A stretch of 64,000 bases of DNA from Opitutales bacterium (GCA_965197745.1 CBDANS010000006.1:768001-832000); one strand, 5' to 3'; shown: positions 27,930 through 43,187, numbered from the stretch's first letter. The notes: generated by a model not told the origin, from the sequence alone. A program made the numbers and translations.

Positions 27930-27946
27930 ATGAGACTAAATCTCAT
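27930..27946 (+). promoter_or_regulatory. Fur-like 7-1-7 palindromic operator, copy 1
   Basis: ATGAGACTAAATCTCAT immediately after TTGATC (-35-like), 12 bp before the ATG. Confidence 0.7.
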
Positions 27947-27958
27947 AGCAATGGGGTC

Positions 27959-28876
27959 ATGATAAGCGATAGACGTATCCACGCAGCTGTATTATTCATC
28001 AGCGCGATTATCATGGGAATAATCAAATGTCCTGAGACACATGCGAGCAGCACACTTTCATTACAAACCCTGGAAAAAGTGGTTGTCGCTTTAAAGCCGG
28101 ATAAAAATCCCGATCAAATGCTCGAAGAGAAAAGGAACTTGAGTGCATATCTGAGTAAAAAGCTGGCCCGGGATGTGGAGGTATTAATTCCACTCAGTTC
28201 CGCGGTTATCATAGAAGGCTTTGCCAATGGGACCATTGATATTGGCTACCTGAGTTCAACCGGCGCAGTTACAGCCATCGAGAAGAATGCTGCAGATGTC
28301 CTTTTAGCAAACGAAATTGAGGGTAAGCCTTATTATTTAAGTTATTGGATTGCGCTCAAAGACAAACCTTACGACAGCGTAGAAGACTTGCGAGGTCAGC
28401 CAATCGCCTTTTCGAGTCGCACCAGCACATCAGGTTTTATCATTCCCACCTGGGATTTATATAAAAAAGGACTCATCGCATCAACAGAACAACCGGAAGA
28501 TTTTTTTGGTAAAGGGAATGTCTATTATGGTGTCGGTTATGTTTCTGCGGCTGATCGTGTCCTTGAAGGTCAGGCCGAAGCTGCGGCCGTAAGCTATTAT
28601 GTGTTAGACAAAGATAAACATCTCTCAGCTGCCAAGCGCGCCCGACTGAAAATGGTGGCCAGTCAGGGTCCAGTCCCCACCCACGTCATTGTCATACGCC
28701 GATCAATCGATGCCAATGACCGCTCACTTCTTAAGGACGCGCTCTTAGCATTAAATGGCGAAGATCCCGATTTAAGAGATAAAGTTTTTACCACCCGCCT
28801 TATTGTTAGCGATGGAGACAAGCATCTAAAATCAATACGCGAGGCAATAAATTTTGTCTCAAGTATGCATTACTGA
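27959..28876 (+). CDS. PhnD/transferrin-fold ABC substrate-binding protein (possibly Fe3+-binding)
   Basis: AFSSRTSTSGFIIP anion loop of the PhnD family; PYYLSYW, GYVSA and VPTHVIV motifs resemble transferrin ligand motifs. Confidence 0.85.
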   Translation: MISDRRIHAAVLFISAIIMGIIKCPETHASSTLSLQTLEKVVVALKPDKNPDQMLEEKRNLSAYLSKKLARDVEVLIPLSSAVIIEGFANGTIDIGYLSSTGAVTAIEKNAADVLLANEIEGKPYYLSYWIALKDKPYDSVEDLRGQPIAFSSRTSTSGFIIPTWDLYKKGLIASTEQPEDFFGKGNVYYGVGYVSAADRVLEGQAEAAAVSYYVLDKDKHLSAAKRARLKMVASQGPVPTHVIVIRRSIDANDRSLLKDALLALNGEDPDLRDKVFTTRLIVSDGDKHLKSIREAINFVSSMHY

Positions 28877-29635
28877 GTGGGAGATCCTGAGATGACGGCA
28901 ATGAATGCCGAATCAATATCAAACGGTAACGCACCGTCAGCGCCGACCCTGATTCTGAAAGATCTGGGACTGCTTCAAAATAACCGTTGGCTATTTCAAG
29001 GGATGAACCTGGAAATTCCACCAGGGAGTTTTGTCGCGGTATTGGGCGCCTCGGGTGCCGGAAAGACTAGTTTACTGACATCATTGTACGGGATGAGGGA
29101 ACCCTCAGTTGGTAATATCCGTTATCACGATAAAAATAACACCCCCTTCACTCCCGCGATGCTGCGGGGGCGGATAGGCATCATCCCTCAGGGTTTTCAT
29201 CTGACGGAAAATGCTACCGTCCTGAACAATGTCCTATGCGGGCGTTTAAATCGCTACACATTTGTTAAAACCTTATTCGGATTTCCCGCCTCATGTAAAA
29301 CAGATGCATATCGTATCATTCATGATCTGGGAATTGCTGAACATCTTTTCCGATGTGTAGCCGAGTTGTCCGGTGGCGAAAAACAACGCGTGGTGATTGC
29401 CCGAACGCTTTTTCAGAATCCTGATATTTACCTGGCTGACGAGCCGGTCTCTCAGCTCGATGTCACTCTCACCGGTTGTGTCCTTGACATTCTGAAATTA
29501 GAGACAAGAGAAAATGATAAAACCGTATTTTGTGTCCTGCACGATTCTGAGTTAGTCGAACGTTTTGCCGATTACGCACTGAGTCTTAACCGAGAAAATC
29601 CAGAAAAATGGCAGCTGAGAAAAATCAGGACTTAG
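28877..29635 (+). CDS. PhnC-like ABC ATPase
   Basis: GASGAGKT, NVLCGRL, LSGGEKQRV, LADEPVSQLD; exact start uncertain. Confidence 0.9.
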   Translation: MGDPEMTAMNAESISNGNAPSAPTLILKDLGLLQNNRWLFQGMNLEIPPGSFVAVLGASGAGKTSLLTSLYGMREPSVGNIRYHDKNNTPFTPAMLRGRIGIIPQGFHLTENATVLNNVLCGRLNRYTFVKTLFGFPASCKTDAYRIIHDLGIAEHLFRCVAELSGGEKQRVVIARTLFQNPDIYLADEPVSQLDVTLTGCVLDILKLETRENDKTVFCVLHDSELVERFADYALSLNRENPEKWQLRKIRT

Positions 29636-30453
29636 GAAAACAACCTCTTGCACTGCCTCAAGTGAAATGGTTTGAGCGGCTGAATGTCCTTAATGTAACT
29701 TTCATAATTTTTCTTCTCGCGGTCATTTTTTCCAGTACCACTTTGCGCGGATCGAGCCGCGATCTCGATTACCTCGGCAATCTTTTTCGATTTGCAGGAC
29801 AATTTGTTCCGCCCGATTTTTCTGTTCTCGGACAGACTCTATTATCACTCCTTGAGACCGTAGAAATTGCGGTGATGGCTACCTTCTTCGCGCTCATTCT
29901 CTCTTTCATATTTGCTCTTGGCGCGGCACAAAATATTGCTCCGCGGTGGCTGGTAGGAATTACACGTATGATCTTAAACGCAATCCGCACCATCCCCAGT
30001 TTAATCTGGGCATTAATCGCGGTTGCTATCGTTGGAGCCAATTCACTCGCCGGTGTAATCGCGCTGACTTTTTACAGTATAGGTTATCTCGGTAAATTTT
30101 TCAGTGAAGCTTTTGAATCCAGTGATGTTGAAACTGCCAGGACGCTGCGGTCTATCGGCGCCGATCCGATCCAGGCATTTCAGTTTGGACTCTGGCCCCA
30201 TGCCAAACCGCTTATCTGGAGTTACTCGATTTGGATGCTTGAATATAATATTCGTTCCGCTTCTATCATCGGTTATGTGGGCGCAGGTGGCATCGGCCTT
30301 CAACTTCACACCTACCAGGAATTCCACCAATGGGATAAATTCGCCACGGTGCTTCTATGCATCCTGATCGTCGTTTCATTGCTGGATCTGCTCGGGGAGG
30401 GGATTCGTCGCAAAATTTCCAAGAAAATCAGCCGACAGCCTCTTGCCGAGTGA
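29608..30453 (+). CDS. PhnE-like ABC permease
   Basis: PPDFS, RTIPSLIWAL, GKFFSEAFE, EYNIRSASIIGYVGAGGIG. Confidence 0.92.
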   Translation: MAAEKNQDLGKQPLALPQVKWFERLNVLNVTFIIFLLAVIFSSTTLRGSSRDLDYLGNLFRFAGQFVPPDFSVLGQTLLSLLETVEIAVMATFFALILSFIFALGAAQNIAPRWLVGITRMILNAIRTIPSLIWALIAVAIVGANSLAGVIALTFYSIGYLGKFFSEAFESSDVETARTLRSIGADPIQAFQFGLWPHAKPLIWSYSIWMLEYNIRSASIIGYVGAGGIGLQLHTYQEFHQWDKFATVLLCILIVVSLLDLLGEGIRRKISKKISRQPLAE

Positions 30454-30539
30454 TATTCAATATCGATGGCTGAACCCTCTTTATGTCAGATATTTATTCA
30501 ATTTATGAAGAAATATTGAAATAATTGCTTAAAATCCGC

Positions 30540-30599
30540 TTGACTTGAGACTGAATCCCATTTTTTCATGAAAATACAAGATACTGAGACTTAGTTTCA
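30540..30599 (+). promoter_or_regulatory. TonB-receptor promoter with Fur-like palindrome copies 2 and 3
   Basis: TTGACT (30540-45) followed by TGAGACT-G-AATCCCA (30546-60); TGAGACT-T-AGTTTCA (30585-99). Confidence 0.68.
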
Positions 30600-30644
30600 A
30601 AATATGCGTGACTCACACGAAAAGAGGCCCAAAGGGTAGCAGCG

Positions 30645-33005
30645 ATGCAAAGAAGTAGGGGAGTTACCATCAGTATAAAGTTAGCTTCACTTGTAGCATC
30701 AGCAACGACGCTGGTATTATCCATGGAAGGGGAGGAATCTCCACCTCAGCAGTTAAGTCTCCGGGAAATCATATCACTTCAAGAATTTGAAGTTATTGGG
30801 TCGAAAGAAAACGTTTTCACCCTCCCGGGTTCAGGGATGTACCTTAATGCCGAAGACATCATCCATTTACAGCACGATGACATTAATCGCATGCTGCGCC
30901 AAGTCCCGGGAGTATACATCCGTGAAGAAGAAGGTTATGGGCTATTCCCTAATATAAGTTTACGCGGTGTCGACACTACACGCAATGGCAAGTTAACCGT
31001 AATGGAAGACGGGGTCCTGACCGCGCCAGCCACCTACTCTGCTCCTTCCGCTTACTACACACCAACAGCGGGAAGGATGTCCGGCATAGAAGTATTAAAA
31101 GGATCCAGTCAGATTAATTATGGCCCCCATACTACGGGCGGGGTAATTAATTATCTTTCAACACCTATTCCCGAACAGAGGGAAAAAGGTAATCTGATAA
31201 AATTGGCAAATGGCAGTGATAATGAAATACGCGCTAACGGTCACATTGGGGATACGGTATCAACCGAGGCTGGAAACTTTGGCTATCTCTTTGAAATATT
31301 TCACCGACAAACGGATGGATTTAAGACAATAGACGGGGCCGGTAATTTTACCGGTAGTGACGACACGGGATTTAAACGATCTGACTATATGTTCAAGGGA
31401 AGCTGGGAACCTGAGACCGATATCTATAATTACTTTGAAATTAAAGTCGGTTACATGGACCTTGAAGCCAATGAAACATACCTGGGCCTCACCACTGAAG
31501 ATTTCAGGATTGATCCTTATCGTCGCTATGCGGCTACACGCAATGATGTTATAAATACAAATCACACACAACTCCATTTAAGACACATCATCGAATTAAG
31601 TCCTGAAGCTAAGGTGACAACCACCACTTATTATAATAAGTTTCACCGCAACTGGTTCAAACTCCATGATATTCGTGACATTGATACGGATGGCAACGGT
31701 ATAACGGAAGGTGACGAGGATAGCCTAGCGACAAGTGCGGTTTCGTCATCTCTTTCCAGTGCACTCGCCGGGAATCTCAACAGCCAGGCCCTGGAAGTAT
31801 TGAAAGGTGAACGAGCGGGGAAATTGCGTATTCGCAATAACAACCGTGATTATTACATGGCCGGCATCCAATCAAAACTGGACTATGAATTTAATACTGG
31901 TAAGGCGCGCCACAATCTAGAACTTGGTTTTCGCTTTCATCAGGATCGTATCCGACGATTCCAGTGGCATAATTTAATTCTACAGGACAGTGAAGGTAAC
32001 TTTATTAATGATACTCGCAGCGCCAATGGATCTGACGGCAACCGTCGCCAGGAAACCCAGGCAATAGCACTTCACCTTAACGATGAAATAAAAACGGGTG
32101 CCTGGACTTTTTCTCCTGGAATCCGTTATGAAACCCTCGACTATAAATATACCGATTTTACCACAGACGGGACCAACCTCCCCGTTGCCAGCGGCACCAG
32201 TTCATTGGACATAGTCGCTCCCGGGTTTGGCATGACTTACGAGCGGAGCGACAATTTAATTTTCTTTGGTAATTACCATCGCGGATTCTCCGTTCCCTCG
32301 CCAAGAAATCATGCGAGAAATGGAAGAGTAGAGGAAACCGCCGACGCCTTTGAGTTAGGGACGCGATTTAGCAGTAAAAAGGGAATTTACGGTGAATTTG
32401 TATTTTTCCATACCCGTTTTGATGATCTTCTTGTCATTGATAATATTGGTGGTGCCGGCACTGGAGAATCAGAAAATGCGGGTAACATCAACTCTACAGG
32501 ACTGGAAGTGCTCTTAGGATTTGATCCCGGTTCGGCCAACAATTGGAGCTTTAATAACCCCTACAGTATTGTTTTCACCTACACCGAAGCTACCCTTGAT
32601 GGAGACATGCAGTCAGAAGACGAAAATTCAATCTTCGCCGGTGGGCTGGAGGGTAATAAAGTCCCCTACATACCTGAATTTCAATTCACTTTTACCGCAG
32701 GATTTGAAATGAAAAAATTCAGATCATATCTCACCGCCACCTATGCCGACGAAACATTTTCCTCTGCCACTAATACTCTTTTTGAATTCAATCCCATCTC
32801 GGAAGAAGAAGACATCCGATTTGGTAAAACGGACAGTTATTTTATTATCGATGTAAGCGCCTACTACGAATTATTCGAAAACGTGGAAATCTTTGGCACT
32901 ATCAACAATCTTTTTGAGGAGGAGTATATTGTCTCTCGCCACCCCCACGGTCCGCGTCCGGGTGCACCGCGCCTGGCCAGTATAGGGGTCCAGTATAAAT
33001 TCTAA
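30645..33005 (+). CDS. TonB-dependent receptor, FecA-like
   Basis: Plug LRQVPGVYIREEEGYGLFPNISLRG, EVLKG..YGPHTTGGVIN, C-terminal NNLFEEEY..RPGAPR..YKF. Confidence 0.92.
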   Translation: MQRSRGVTISIKLASLVASATTLVLSMEGEESPPQQLSLREIISLQEFEVIGSKENVFTLPGSGMYLNAEDIIHLQHDDINRMLRQVPGVYIREEEGYGLFPNISLRGVDTTRNGKLTVMEDGVLTAPATYSAPSAYYTPTAGRMSGIEVLKGSSQINYGPHTTGGVINYLSTPIPEQREKGNLIKLANGSDNEIRANGHIGDTVSTEAGNFGYLFEIFHRQTDGFKTIDGAGNFTGSDDTGFKRSDYMFKGSWEPETDIYNYFEIKVGYMDLEANETYLGLTTEDFRIDPYRRYAATRNDVINTNHTQLHLRHIIELSPEAKVTTTTYYNKFHRNWFKLHDIRDIDTDGNGITEGDEDSLATSAVSSSLSSALAGNLNSQALEVLKGERAGKLRIRNNNRDYYMAGIQSKLDYEFNTGKARHNLELGFRFHQDRIRRFQWHNLILQDSEGNFINDTRSANGSDGNRRQETQAIALHLNDEIKTGAWTFSPGIRYETLDYKYTDFTTDGTNLPVASGTSSLDIVAPGFGMTYERSDNLIFFGNYHRGFSVPSPRNHARNGRVEETADAFELGTRFSSKKGIYGEFVFFHTRFDDLLVIDNIGGAGTGESENAGNINSTGLEVLLGFDPGSANNWSFNNPYSIVFTYTEATLDGDMQSEDENSIFAGGLEGNKVPYIPEFQFTFTAGFEMKKFRSYLTATYADETFSSATNTLFEFNPISEEEDIRFGKTDSYFIIDVSAYYELFENVEIFGTINNLFEEEYIVSRHPHGPRPGAPRLASIGVQYKF

Positions 33006-37090: not shown

Positions 37091-37909
37091 ATGGAGACTG
37101 CTTCCGGAGTCTCGAGCTCAAAAGCCAAGAGTATGCCTGTGGCTATGACCGTAGCCGGTTCAGACAGCGGGGGTGGTGCGGGAATACAGGCAGATCTTCT
37201 TACTTTTTCTAACCTCAGTGTATTTGGCACCTCGGCGATTACCTGCCTCACAGCACAAAATCCTGATGGAGTGACCGCTATAGAGGCGATGAGCCCTGCC
37301 TTCGTCCTCGAACAGATCAAACAGGTTCAAACCTATTTTCCAATTAATGGGCTAAAGACAGGTATGCTTTTTGACGAAGATATAATTATGGCTGTTTCCG
37401 ATTTTCTTCAGGTTCACCGAAGCGTTGCCGCTGTCGTCGATCCGGTAATGGTTGCGACAAGTGGCGCCGAGCTCTTACGACCCGACGCAGTAAGAGCCAT
37501 TAAAGAGAAGCTTTTACCTTTGGCTACAGTGATCACACCGAATCTCGATGAAATTAAAGTCCTCTTAGGAGATCGCCCTTTTGGTCGTGAAAGCATGCTT
37601 AATGCCGCAAAAGAATTAGTAAGCCAATACGGTGCGGCGGCTCTGGTAAAAGGAGGGCATCTGGAGAGCGATGCGATCATCGATATCCTCCTTGAAACCG
37701 ATGGTTCGGTAACTGAACTTAAAAGCAAACGGGTAAAAGAGATCAATACCCATGGAAGCGGCTGTACTTTATCGGCAGCCATCGCAGCAGAGCTCGCAAA
37801 AGGAAAACCATTAAAGCAATCTGTTGAGTCCGCGCACTCTTACTTGCAGCGGGGGATGCGTTCACCTCTATACCTTCAAGGCCAGTTTTTTATAGGGCAT
37901 GGAGTCTAA
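37091..37909 (+). CDS. thiD: Hydroxymethylpyrimidine/phosphomethylpyrimidine kinase
   Basis: AGSDSGGGAGIQADL, DPVMVATSG, KGGH, THGSGCTLS. Confidence 0.96.
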   Translation: METASGVSSSKAKSMPVAMTVAGSDSGGGAGIQADLLTFSNLSVFGTSAITCLTAQNPDGVTAIEAMSPAFVLEQIKQVQTYFPINGLKTGMLFDEDIIMAVSDFLQVHRSVAAVVDPVMVATSGAELLRPDAVRAIKEKLLPLATVITPNLDEIKVLLGDRPFGRESMLNAAKELVSQYGAAALVKGGHLESDAIIDILLETDGSVTELKSKRVKEINTHGSGCTLSAAIAAELAKGKPLKQSVESAHSYLQRGMRSPLYLQGQFFIGHGV

Positions 37910-39556
37910 TCTCCGTGTCTCATGCCGGGCACCTTTAGGCTGGATCTTAGCACCGATAATTTGGGGTTACCTATTAGGCCGTCATCATCCTTCTATAGAA
38001 GCTTCCATGCTGAGCATAGTGGGAACCTTGTGTGCCCTTATCGCGCTCTGCTCTGCTTGCACCGAGAATGAGTACTTTCACCGCTCATGGGCTATTTTAT
38101 TTCTTTTCGCCGGCACTTTTATGGCGTGGGGTTACTTCAATAGCCGTACAATAAAGATTTCTCCAGAATGGCTTATGCTTCCGCCACGGGAAGCCGAGTT
38201 AACCCTGAAACTCGAGCGTATTTATAAACACGCGGACTCATTTGGACAAATATCAGGCATCGCAAAAGTAGAGCAAGCACCCAAACATTTAAGCGATCTG
38301 CACGGGCAACGTATTTATTTTCAGCTAAGAACTGAAAAGGCAAGCAGCCCGTTGATTCGCACCGCCATTATTCGTGGTCGAGGAGTCCTTACTTTGATAA
38401 ACGAAACATCTGATAAAAGTGATTTTGAAGATTACCTGATACGTAGCGGCATCCACTACATATTAAAACGGGGCCGGGTAACCGGTATTATTGAAAAAGA
38501 ATTTCCTTTTTACCGAATGTGCTTTGAAACAAGCCATTTATTCCAATCCGTTCTGAAAGCAGGGAGCCCCCCTGACAGCGAATATGCCAGGGTATATATT
38601 GCCATGCTCCTCGGTAAAAGGATTGTTTTAACGCAGGCGCAAAAAGAACGCTTTCAAATTAGCGGAACCATGCATTTTTTTGCAGTGAGCGGACTGCATG
38701 TCGGCATTATTGCCATGGTCTTGAATTATTTTTTTTCCTATTACGGTTCTCCAATAAAACGAGGGTAGTAATCGGGCTTCTCCTCCTATTTATCTACGTA
38801 GAAATAACAGGGGCTGCACCGTCAGCAGTAAGGGCATTTTTAATGGTCGCGATTTTCTGGAGTTCTCAACTCCTCTTTCGTCAAGCAACTCCCTTTGCCG
38901 CTCTCCTCGCTTCGGGACTTTTCGTTTTAATCATCGATCCGCGGCAACTGTGGAATGCGGGCTTTCAATTATCTTATGCCGTAGTAGCGGGAATATTACT
39001 CTACGGCTTGCCATTGATGGAACGCATAAACAACGCGCTGATCTTATATCCGGGATTGCCGAGCGAGAGCTATCGGTGGCATCAACATCTGATTAAACAA
39101 TGTGTCCACAAGCTGACGGGACTATTTGCGATCAGCTTTTCGGCAAGTCTGATCAGCAGTCCATTAACTATTTATTACTTTAATCTTTTTACCCCAGGAG
39201 CCGTTTTATTAAATGTTATTTTGGTCACGATAGCCACCTTGGTTATCATTAATGGTGTCATTTCACTTTTCTTCGGCCTGCTCCAAATAACCGCGGTGAG
39301 TGCATTTTTGAATCACGGTTCCTGGGTCTTAATCTGGATTGTAAATGAAACCATCAACTTTTCAGTAGGCATTCCCGGATTTTTTAAGCGCATTGATTTC
39401 GACATAGATATTTTAGGTCCCTTAACTTTATGTGTCCTCTTGGTGTCCTTATTTTTTTGTCATTCAAAAAAGTATATAAATTCACGTATTGCTTATTGGG
39501 TGCCACCACTTATATTATTATTATTCATTGTATTCGGAACGCATCCTCTTAATTGA
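37899..39556 (+). pseudogene. comEC: ComEC/Rec2 competence channel split by a frameshift at a T8 run
   Basis: GTMHFFAVSGLHVG in ORF 37899-38768; GAAPSAVRA and GFQLSY in the next frame; one extra T in 38729-38736 restores a single ORF. Confidence 0.88.
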
Positions 39557-42985: not shown

Positions 42986-43187
42986 AGCCCCAGAGGGGCG
43001 TTATATATTTAGCCCATTGCGTAAGCAATGGGTATAGGAGATATTATAAAACCTGAAGCCCCGGAGGGGCGACACAACATATGTCCCGACCGTACTTGTG
43101 TCGCCCCTCCGGGGCTTTTATGTTGTTTTTACATTTATACCCACAGCTCGCGCTGTGGGCTAAGTTTATCACACCCCTCCGGGGTGA
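42986..43187. repeat. Nested palindromic REP/MITE-like element
   Basis: Perfect 22-bp IR AAGCCCCGGAGGGGCGACACAA (43056-77 / 43096-117) inside outer IR pairs (TTAGCCCA..TGGGTATA / TATACCCA..TGGGCTAA). Confidence 0.8.

Follow-up and report, generated by a model that had tools for sequence, protein, structure and literature searches.

A stretch of 64,000 nucleotides from an Opitutales bacterium, referred to below as the window, carries at positions 27959-33005 four co-directional genes, which encode a periplasmic substrate-binding protein of the PhnD family, an ATP-binding cassette (ABC) ATPase, a permease and a TonB-dependent outer-membrane receptor (Table 1). The nearest relatives of the host genome (4.45 Mb, 92% complete) place it in the Opitutales, Verrucomicrobiota. 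We suggest that this locus may be a two-unit iron-uptake module, which is controlled by an iron-responsive Fur-type operator and relies on a PhnD-family protein predicted to bind Fe(III). We give this reading, which is drawn from sequence comparison, a probability of roughly one half.

Table 1. Genes and operator sites of the locus, in window coordinates (PWM, position weight matrix)
Feature	Position	Strand	Details
Operator O1, TGAGACTAAATCTCA	27931-27945		7-1-7 palindrome; 14 bp before the binding-protein start codon
PhnD-family substrate-binding protein, periplasmic	27959-28876	+	305 amino acids, signal peptide; PF12974, E 1e-45
ABC ATPase, PhnC-like	28877-29635	+	PF00005, E 2e-29; TIGR02315, 165 bits, under the cut-off of 266
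ABC permease, PhnE type	29608-30453	+	TIGR01097, 247.7 bits, above the cut-off of 216.7
Operator O2, TGAGACTGAATCCCA	30546-30560		one mismatch; 85 bp before the receptor gene; PWM 18.5, fourth best in the genome
Operator O3, TGAGACTTAGTTTCA	30585-30599		one mismatch; 46 bp before the receptor start codon; PWM 20.8, second in the genome
TonB-dependent outer-membrane receptor	30645-33005	+	786 amino acids, Plug and barrel, distantly FecA-like

The ATPase gene begins at the base right after the binding-protein stop codon, the permease gene overlaps the ATPase gene, and the receptor gene follows the permease gene after a gap of 191 bp. The binding protein scores 156.5 bits against PF12974 (cut-off 27), its sole Pfam match at E up to 0.001. 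Among the NCBIfam models, it passes the cut-off of TIGR01098 (120 bits; cut-off 112.05) and fails that of the PhnD equivalog TIGR03431 (99 bits; cut-off 261.1). The best NCBIfam match of the receptor is FecA (NF041676), with 118.9 bits and thus under the cut-off of 1100; among solved structures, E. coli FecA is nearest to it (E 1.6e-24), followed by the heme receptor PhuR. An N-terminal signalling domain was not detected in the Pfam scan of the receptor, which returned Plug and barrel only.

These scans bear out the initial annotation of the window, which had described PhnD/C/E-like genes followed by a FecA-like receptor. Its statement that genes of C-P lyase and phosphite dehydrogenase are missing nearby also holds, as none was found among the 16 open reading frames (ORFs) scanned between 22.0 and 39.6 kb of the window. 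A scan for sigma-70 promoters and terminators gave nothing usable. A tRNA-Arg(CCG) gene is located directly upstream of the binding-protein gene, on the opposite strand.

The operator and its regulon

The sites preceding the binding-protein and receptor genes belong to a 15-bp palindromic operator, TGAGAYT-N-ARTCTCA. O1 is the single exact match to TGAGAYTNARTCTCA in the entire genome; at up to one mismatch, this pattern has six matches in the genome and one in the reversed genome. A PWM built from 29 sites in related loci gives O1 the top score of 23.0, and the four best scores in the genome are those of O1, O2, O3 and a site 76 bp upstream of a Fur-family gene that heads sufC-sufB. The classical Fur box has a 7-1-7 consensus, with which the operator agrees at 10 of the 14 specified positions; the Fur-like boxes mentioned in the initial annotation are accordingly present, as the operator-like sites listed in Table 1.

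The operator recurs in about half of the related loci. Within 53 Verrucomicrobiota loci, of which 51 were usable for this purpose, the motif (up to two mismatches) is found within 260 bp upstream of the binding-protein orthologue in 27. Motif density upstream of the orthologues is 1.89/kb, compared with 0.030/kb elsewhere in the loci, a 63-fold difference. Most of the remaining sites in these loci precede receptor genes, and paired sites are present before the orthologous receptors in L001, L002, L023, L041 and L044.

The sites found outside the locus constitute another line of evidence. Five related genomes contain 19 sites at up to one mismatch, versus 3 in the reversed control. Sixteen of the 19 were examined (left out were G001 sites 1589770, 1820178 and 2208081); eight of these are iron-related, and the other eight precede unrelated or unknown genes. 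In G001, one site precedes the binding-protein orthologue, two precede the receptor gene and one the Fur-suf operon. In G014, one site is upstream of feoB, and another is in the promoter region of 54 bp from which hemS/chuX and a Peripla_BP_2 gene diverge. The sites in G004 and G025 belong to FTR1-family permeases, 31 and 7 bp from the respective start codons.

In the host genome, sufC (333 bits, over its cut-off) and sufB come after the Fur-family gene (150 amino acids) at G000:C6:424593-426600 (L067:1399-3353), and a second, weaker operator lies 23 bp upstream of the 76-bp site. Of 27 loci from relatives, 26 have a Fur-family gene followed by sufC, and 12 have the motif upstream. The genome has four Fur-family genes, including this paralogue, which does not have the two CxxC pairs of the Cys4 site and scores best as PerR/Irr, under every cut-off. 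On this pattern of sites, TGAGAYT-N-ARTCTCA is predicted to be the iron-responsive operator of Opitutales, and the importer and the receptor are very probably members of an iron regulon.

The same paralogue bears on another explanation, in which the locus imports a different metal or an oxyanion (Mn, Zn, Co/Ni, molybdate, vanadate or a lanthanide) or is part of a PerR-like oxidative-stress module. Its PerR/Irr-like scores and missing Cys4 site are consistent with this, as is the presence of DtxR-type repressors, which can be Mn sensors, beside distant relatives of the binding protein; tyrosinate sites, moreover, also bind other hard cations. The regulon partners in related genomes (feoB, FTR1 and hemS/chuX) are, however, iron-specific, the distribution of the family is anti-correlated with those of FeoB and FTR1, and the nearest solved relatives of the receptor are iron and heme receptors. 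In our opinion, this explanation is very improbable.

The binding pocket and its relatives

Residues of the binding protein were mapped onto Trichodesmium PtxB (Te_PtxB, structure 5JVB) through the ungapped part of a phmmer alignment, with numbering as in Bisson et al. 2017 (PMC5700983). According to that study, the residues of Te_PtxB in contact with phosphite or its cap include D22, Y100, S130-T131-S132, H160 and the capping Y208. The STS-H motif, made up of the Ser-Thr-Ser loop and the His, binds phosph(on)ate oxygens; Y55 is a further ligand contact, Y208 is 2.6 A from the ligand, and D22 is the cap partner (PMC5700983). The corresponding residues of the binding protein are D48 (for D22), Y126 (for Y100), S156-T157-S158 (for S130-T131-S132), Y194 (for H160) and H242 (for Y208). 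All of these are invariant in 36 family members, Y194 being present in 36/36; the position of Y55 is variable and is occupied by S81. The protein is thus a member of PF12974 without the defining His of phosph(on)ate binders.

The HMMER alignment sets an 8-residue gap just beside H160 of Te_PtxB, and a 95-sequence MAFFT alignment was used to place Y194. In the latter, Y194 occupies the His column of every classical PhnD/PtxB member, and H242 shares a column with the capping Tyr of PtxB or with an Asp of PhnD. In the distant relative P0166, Gly-Tyr pairs with Thr/Ala-His, and Pro-Thr-His with Pro-Gln-Tyr, of two PtxB structures; because this pairing is gap-free, the His-to-Tyr and Tyr-to-His correspondence is unambiguous for P0166. 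Judging by these alignments, what is new relative to the phosphite and phosphonate binders is the replacement of the His by Tyr, the replacement of the cap Tyr (or Asp) by His, and the loss of the first Tyr.

The initial annotation had numbered S99, Y126, STSG 156-159, Y194 and H242 correctly, and the alignments agree with its placement of Y194 at the His position of PhnD and of H242 where PhnD has no His. Y126, which it had compared with a transferrin Tyr, is indeed present at a ligand-contacting position; it is nevertheless an ordinary conserved Tyr of the PhnD family (Te_PtxB Y100) and not a new feature. The mapping onto PtxB suggests the invariant D48 as the acidic residue next to H242, where the initial annotation had set S99 at the position of transferrin Asp63. 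Since Y126, Y194 and H242 all fall on ligand-contacting positions of a solved homologue, PtxB, they are expected to converge; together with D48 and the Ser-Thr-Ser loop they would, by homology, line one small pocket.

The AlphaFold2 model of the binding protein (predicted local distance difference test score 89.2, predicted template modelling score 0.81) points to a two-lobe class II periplasmic binding fold, to which PtxB/PhnD are the nearest solved structures. The best Foldseek match is PtxB 5o2k (E 1.6e-21, template modelling (TM) scores 0.66/0.76), within a top group that comprises PtxB, ArrX, AioX, PhnD, GpxB and HtxB (1.6e-21 to 2.5e-15). Next come transferrin and lactoferrin lobes, from rank 43 (E 1.2e-12; TM 0.56 for a transferrin N-lobe).

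Similarity to transferrin can also be detected in the sequence, where it is weak. The family profile matches insect transferrin 6wb6 over about 70 residues with E 7e-4, transferrin ranks 19th in PDB sequence searches, and a PDB search with the 36-residue sub-range around Y194 gave no transferrin match; nor did the Pfam scan (E up to 0.001) match the binding protein to the transferrin family PF00405. The transferrin matches were considered as a mark of special closeness and rejected, as the His-type control matches better: the classical His-type PhnD P0215 matches serum transferrins with E 1.7e-5, compared with 1.5e-4 to 1.5e-3 for other members of the Tyr/His type. Detectable similarity to transferrin therefore belongs to the PF12974 family as a whole. 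The special evolutionary link between PhnD and transferrins that the initial annotation had entertained finds no support in the form stated, given that the Tyr/His signature is common to 43 of 85 sampled representatives in several clades and that a classical His-type PhnD gives the better sequence match to transferrins. Transferrin and phytotransferrin have been proposed to share an origin among periplasmic proteins that bind phosphonates (McQuaid 2018, as cited in PMC7676907).

An exhaustive search of cluster representatives returned 2886 relatives at E up to 0.001 and 32 at E up to 1e-30; the hit list is filled by the close family, Verrucomicrobiota proteins with 55-74% identity. In a tree of 85 full-length representatives (a quick IQ-TREE run, midpoint-rooted), 43 have both Tyr in place of the His and His at the cap, and 22 have the classical His. 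The His-type proteins form one nested clade with a Shimodaira-Hasegawa-like approximate likelihood ratio support of 97, around which the Tyr/His types are arranged in several clades. The Verrucomicrobiota family forms a clade of its own with full support, recognisable by Asp or Asn at position 48 and by the lack of Tyr at position 81. No NCBIfam model separates the Tyr/His clades from the His-type clade, and the sole source name beyond "phosphonate transport system substrate-binding protein" is "PhnD/SsuA/transferrin family". The Tyr/His signature is therefore real, strongly conserved, and a property of a large uncharacterised branch, not of one gene. One member of this type is the C-terminal domain of 270 residues of a 1188-amino-acid metagenomic protein (L140:4277-7843, + strand), the N-terminal 900 residues of which have no Pfam match.

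Distribution and gene neighbourhood

Of the 53 Verrucomicrobiota loci, many of which are short, 52 have PhnC- and PhnE-like genes after the binding-protein gene. One TonB-receptor family is present in 22 of the loci and a TonB gene in 6, with either of them in 26. The receptor orthologues were found in 4 loci by tblastn with the window receptor, a count that a local profile raised to 22. Pfam scans of 34 representatives of the commonest neighbour clusters revealed no phosphonate-catabolism genes; singleton neighbours were left unscanned. The linkage to iron genes, for which the initial annotation proposed to look, is represented in these loci by the receptor and TonB genes, and among the scanned representatives nothing places the orthologues in phosphorus-acquisition loci. 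Upstream of one PhnD-like operon, a 738-amino-acid protein (L025:4693-6909, - strand) fuses a sodium:dicarboxylate symporter (SDF) with SBP_bac_3; this unusual architecture (cluster 5) is found in 9 loci of Terrimicrobiaceae type.

Metagenome contigs were scanned with an alignment of distant Tyr/His-type relatives, which yielded 80 loci, namely, 34 of Tyr/His type, 21 of His type and 25 unreadable ones. Neighbours counted as iron-type were TonB receptors, TonB, ExbB, ExbD, DtxR-type repressors, imelysin and FbpA-like proteins. They are present in 11 of the 34 Tyr/His loci versus none of the 21 His-type loci, a comparison in which several contigs are near-copies, corresponding to about six independent cases, and in which the classes were chosen after the annotations were known. 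Separately, in about 10 of the His-type loci (L166-L199), the PhnD-like gene adjoins genes for NrdR and for a class II ribonucleotide reductase that has a TSCPD domain.

The inventory of the host genome bears on both iron and phosphorus. A true FeoB was not found in the genome; the FeoB_N matches are other GTPases and were rejected as FeoB (the best has 51.6 bits in a 353-amino-acid ORF, and a 758-amino-acid ORF is IF-2). FTR1 was likewise not found in the genome. The only FecCD-type system is a Peripla_BP_2/ATPase/FecCD operon, convergent with a BtuB-size TonB receptor (L106:3661-8772; G000:C7:558660-563771); as this receptor is behind a cobalamin riboswitch, the system was rejected as a siderophore importer. 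The binding-protein gene is the only PF12974 gene in the genome. PhnJ was not found in the whole genome (92% complete). A phosphonatase cluster is located about 205 kb from the importer, at G000:C6:588000-595500 (L205:5029-12462). Besides PhnX itself, which clears its cut-off with 315 bits, the cluster encodes a PhnX-like hydrolase, HAD hydrolases, a class II aldolase and an HpnZ-like dehydrogenase.

A census covered 121 Opitutales genomes with a completeness of 90% or more and found the binding-protein family in 23, FeoB_C in 70, FTR1 in 6, PhnX in 4 and PhnJ in 4. Six of the 23 genomes with the family have FeoB, none has FTR1, and 17 have neither, whereas FeoB or FTR1 is present in 69 of the remaining 98. 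This complementarity recurs in several taxonomic families; for instance, all three genomes of one genus have the family and none has FeoB, and its sister genus shows the reverse. PhnJ and PhnX are both absent from 19 of the 23 family genomes, in which PhnX is found three times (always within the host's own family) and PhnJ once. Conversely, G027 has PhnX without the binding-protein family.

These data bear most directly on the possibility that the annotation is right and the locus imports phosphonate, phosphite or some other phosphorus oxyanion, to which the receptor widens access and for which the operator reflects co-regulation or coincidence. The intact Ser-Thr-Ser loop agrees with this, yet Tyr takes the place of the His of STS-H, and the position of the first Tyr that binds phosph(on)ate (Te_PtxB Y55) has Ser or varies. 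Membership in PF12974 and TIGR01098 and the PhnE equivalog are as expected of such an importer, whereas the PhnD equivalog is missed (99 bits versus a cut-off of 261). A PhnX phosphonatase cluster that has no transporter of its own, in a genome with a sole PF12974 gene, would be well served by it; across the census, however, most genomes with the family lack both PhnJ and PhnX, and G027 does without the family in the presence of PhnX. Finally, the operator is common to feoB, FTR1, hemS and the Fur-suf operon, and phosphonate-catabolism genes are missing from the scanned neighbours. Phosphorus import thus appears quite improbable.

Several features outside the subject of this analysis were recorded. 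The same sequence is present, in reverse complement, near the ends of two contigs (G000:C5:492287-495202 and G000:C7:2139047-2141962), with identical GTPase matches and mirrored motif matches, and is probably an assembly overlap or a repeat. In the window, ComEC/Rec2 is represented by two consecutive + strand ORFs (37899-38768 and 38843-39556), the N-terminal part matching positions 1-46 of the Competence profile and the second ORF positions 84-268; the gene may be split or frameshifted, or there may be two genes. The Rfam small RNA Acido-Lenti-1 has a match at 42986-43032 (- strand; 43.6 bits, gathering score 37) in this host, a member of Verrucomicrobiota.

Proposed role in iron uptake

An iron importer disguised as a phosphonate transporter, as the initial annotation put it, is supported insofar as iron uptake is concerned; its special role as an evolutionary link to transferrins is not. 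Iron uptake, rather than phosphorus acquisition, is indicated by the common iron operator, by the linkage to TonB receptors and TonB, and by a distribution that does not track phosphonate catabolism. The cargo is likely to be iron in some form, and the odds that the binding protein directly binds Fe(III) and an anion in the manner of transferrin, as its residues suggest, are about even.

The proposed pathway would operate as follows. Under iron shortage, the repressor would leave TGAGAYT-N-ARTCTCA and both units would be transcribed. The FecA-like TonB-dependent receptor would carry ferric iron across the outer membrane. In the periplasm, the PhnD-family protein may hold Fe(III) in its inter-lobe pocket through the tyrosinates Y126 and Y194 and through H242, D48 serving either as a fourth ligand or as a partner to H242, and a carbonate or phosphate oxyanion may be bound on the Ser-Thr-Ser loop at the N-terminus of a helix, as in transferrin and FbpA. 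The PhnE/PhnC-like ABC transporter would then bring the iron to the cytoplasm.

The same pathway and regulation could also serve an iron compound, such as ferric citrate, ferric pyrophosphate or phosphonate, or a small metallophore, the carboxylate or phosph(on)ate group of which would fill the Ser-Thr-Ser loop. TonB receptors usually carry chelates, the anion loop is kept, and the iron-regulon evidence applies equally. Among solved structures, the receptor is closest to FecA, which is specific for ferric dicitrate (E 1.6e-24), although it is far under the FecA equivalog cut-off (119 versus 1100 bits). In addition, H242 and D48 by alignment replace the cap pair Y208/D22, which in PtxB closes a very small pocket (PMC5700983). 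We consider such a cargo unlikely.

A number of observations weigh against direct Fe(III) binding and iron-responsive control, and several of them concern the pocket. The convergence of Y126, Y194 and H242 rests on homology to PtxB; in the wider Tyr/His clade, Gln or Thr takes the place of D48, and Asn is found in some close representatives. The phosph(on)ate loop, Ser-Thr-Ser, is intact, and both the permease and the binding protein score above the cut-off, for the PhnE equivalog and TIGR01098, respectively; likewise, no transporter is present among the ORFs of at least 150 amino acids in the phosphonatase cluster, and the importer has the sole PF12974 gene of the genome. With respect to regulation, the PWM control on the reversed genome reached 20.3 once, and single sites are not significant on their own; the case therefore rests on the clustering and conservation of the sites, not on single scores. 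For 24 of the 51 orthologues, mainly those of Chthoniobacterales, the pattern search gave no upstream motif. Control of the operator by peroxide or heme instead of iron is possible because the Fur paralogue beside sufCB has no Cys4 site and scores best as PerR/Irr. The Fisher test of the family against FeoB/FTR1 gives p 2e-4, which is overstated, the genomes being kin. The genome also contains an SBP_bac_6-type binding protein and a weak Nramp match, and other iron routes are therefore possible.

The proposed iron-uptake module resembles several known systems in part. With TbpA/FbpABC of Neisseria and Haemophilus (also HitABC, SfuABC and FutABC) it would share an iron-repressed TonB receptor, a periplasmic binding protein and an ABC importer, as predicted here from the genes. 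FbpA, the "bacterial transferrin", uses ligands of the Tyr/Tyr/His type and a synergistic oxyanion, and the residues of the binding protein suggest the same chemistry. The binding protein, however, matches no SBP_bac_1/6/8/11 Pfam family, only PF12974, and its resemblance to FbpA is functional, not familial; the permease is of the PhnE type, and the operator is TGAGAYT-N-ARTCTCA.

By sequence and fold, the binding protein belongs with PtxB, PhnD, HtxB, AioX and ArrX, which bind phosphite, phosphonate, hypophosphite, arsenite and arsenate. It has in common with them the Ser-Thr-Ser loop, the cap-pair Asp (D48 for Te_PtxB D22) and, at the hinge, a Tyr (Y126 for Y100), and differs in having Y194 for the His of STS-H, H242 for the capping Tyr and S81 for Y55. 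Unlike the PtxB/PhnD systems, its genes are predicted to be iron-regulated and are linked to a TonB receptor, not to ptxD, htx or C-P lyase. FecABCDE of E. coli is similar in that FecA is the solved structure nearest to the receptor and that an outer-membrane receptor is combined with ABC import under iron control, which is predicted here. In contrast to that system, no signalling domain and no FecIR were found here, and the binding protein and permease families are unrelated (FecB is Peripla_BP_2 and FecCD is PF01032); the only FecCD system of this genome is the cobalamin one.

Transferrin and ISIP2a are next-closest in fold after the PhnD-type proteins, with the weak sequence similarity to insect transferrin 6wb6 described above, and they would share the Asp/Tyr/Tyr/His and anion composition proposed for the binding protein. 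The latter is outside the transferrin Pfam family and has a single lobe; it serves an ABC importer rather than endocytosis, and its acidic residue would come from another loop. As classical His-type PhnD matches transferrin at least as well as the Tyr/His clade does, a particular closeness of this clade is not supported. It is conceivable, if doubtful, that the Tyr/His branch of PF12974 as a whole consists of prokaryotic single-lobe Fe(III)/anion binders of the transferrin type, which are spread over multiple phyla, feed PhnCE-like importers and represent the stock of transferrin and phytotransferrin; many "phosphonate transporter" annotations would then denote iron uptake. Full-text searches, from which supplements were excluded, found no report of a bacterial iron-binding PhnD-family protein.

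The operator TGAGAYT-N-ARTCTCA provides a usable handle on the iron regulon of Opitutales. If the proposed role is correct, a branch annotated as phosphonate-binding would consist of iron carriers, with 43 of the 85 representatives and 23 of the 121 Opitutales genomes concerned, and environmental counts of "phnD" would inflate phosphonate use and undercount iron uptake. Verrucomicrobiota without FeoB, FTR1 and a siderophore-type ABC importer would gain an identified iron route to the cytoplasm. The descent of transferrin from PhnD-like proteins would also become testable, with a living bacterial intermediate that combines Tyr, Tyr and His with an anion.

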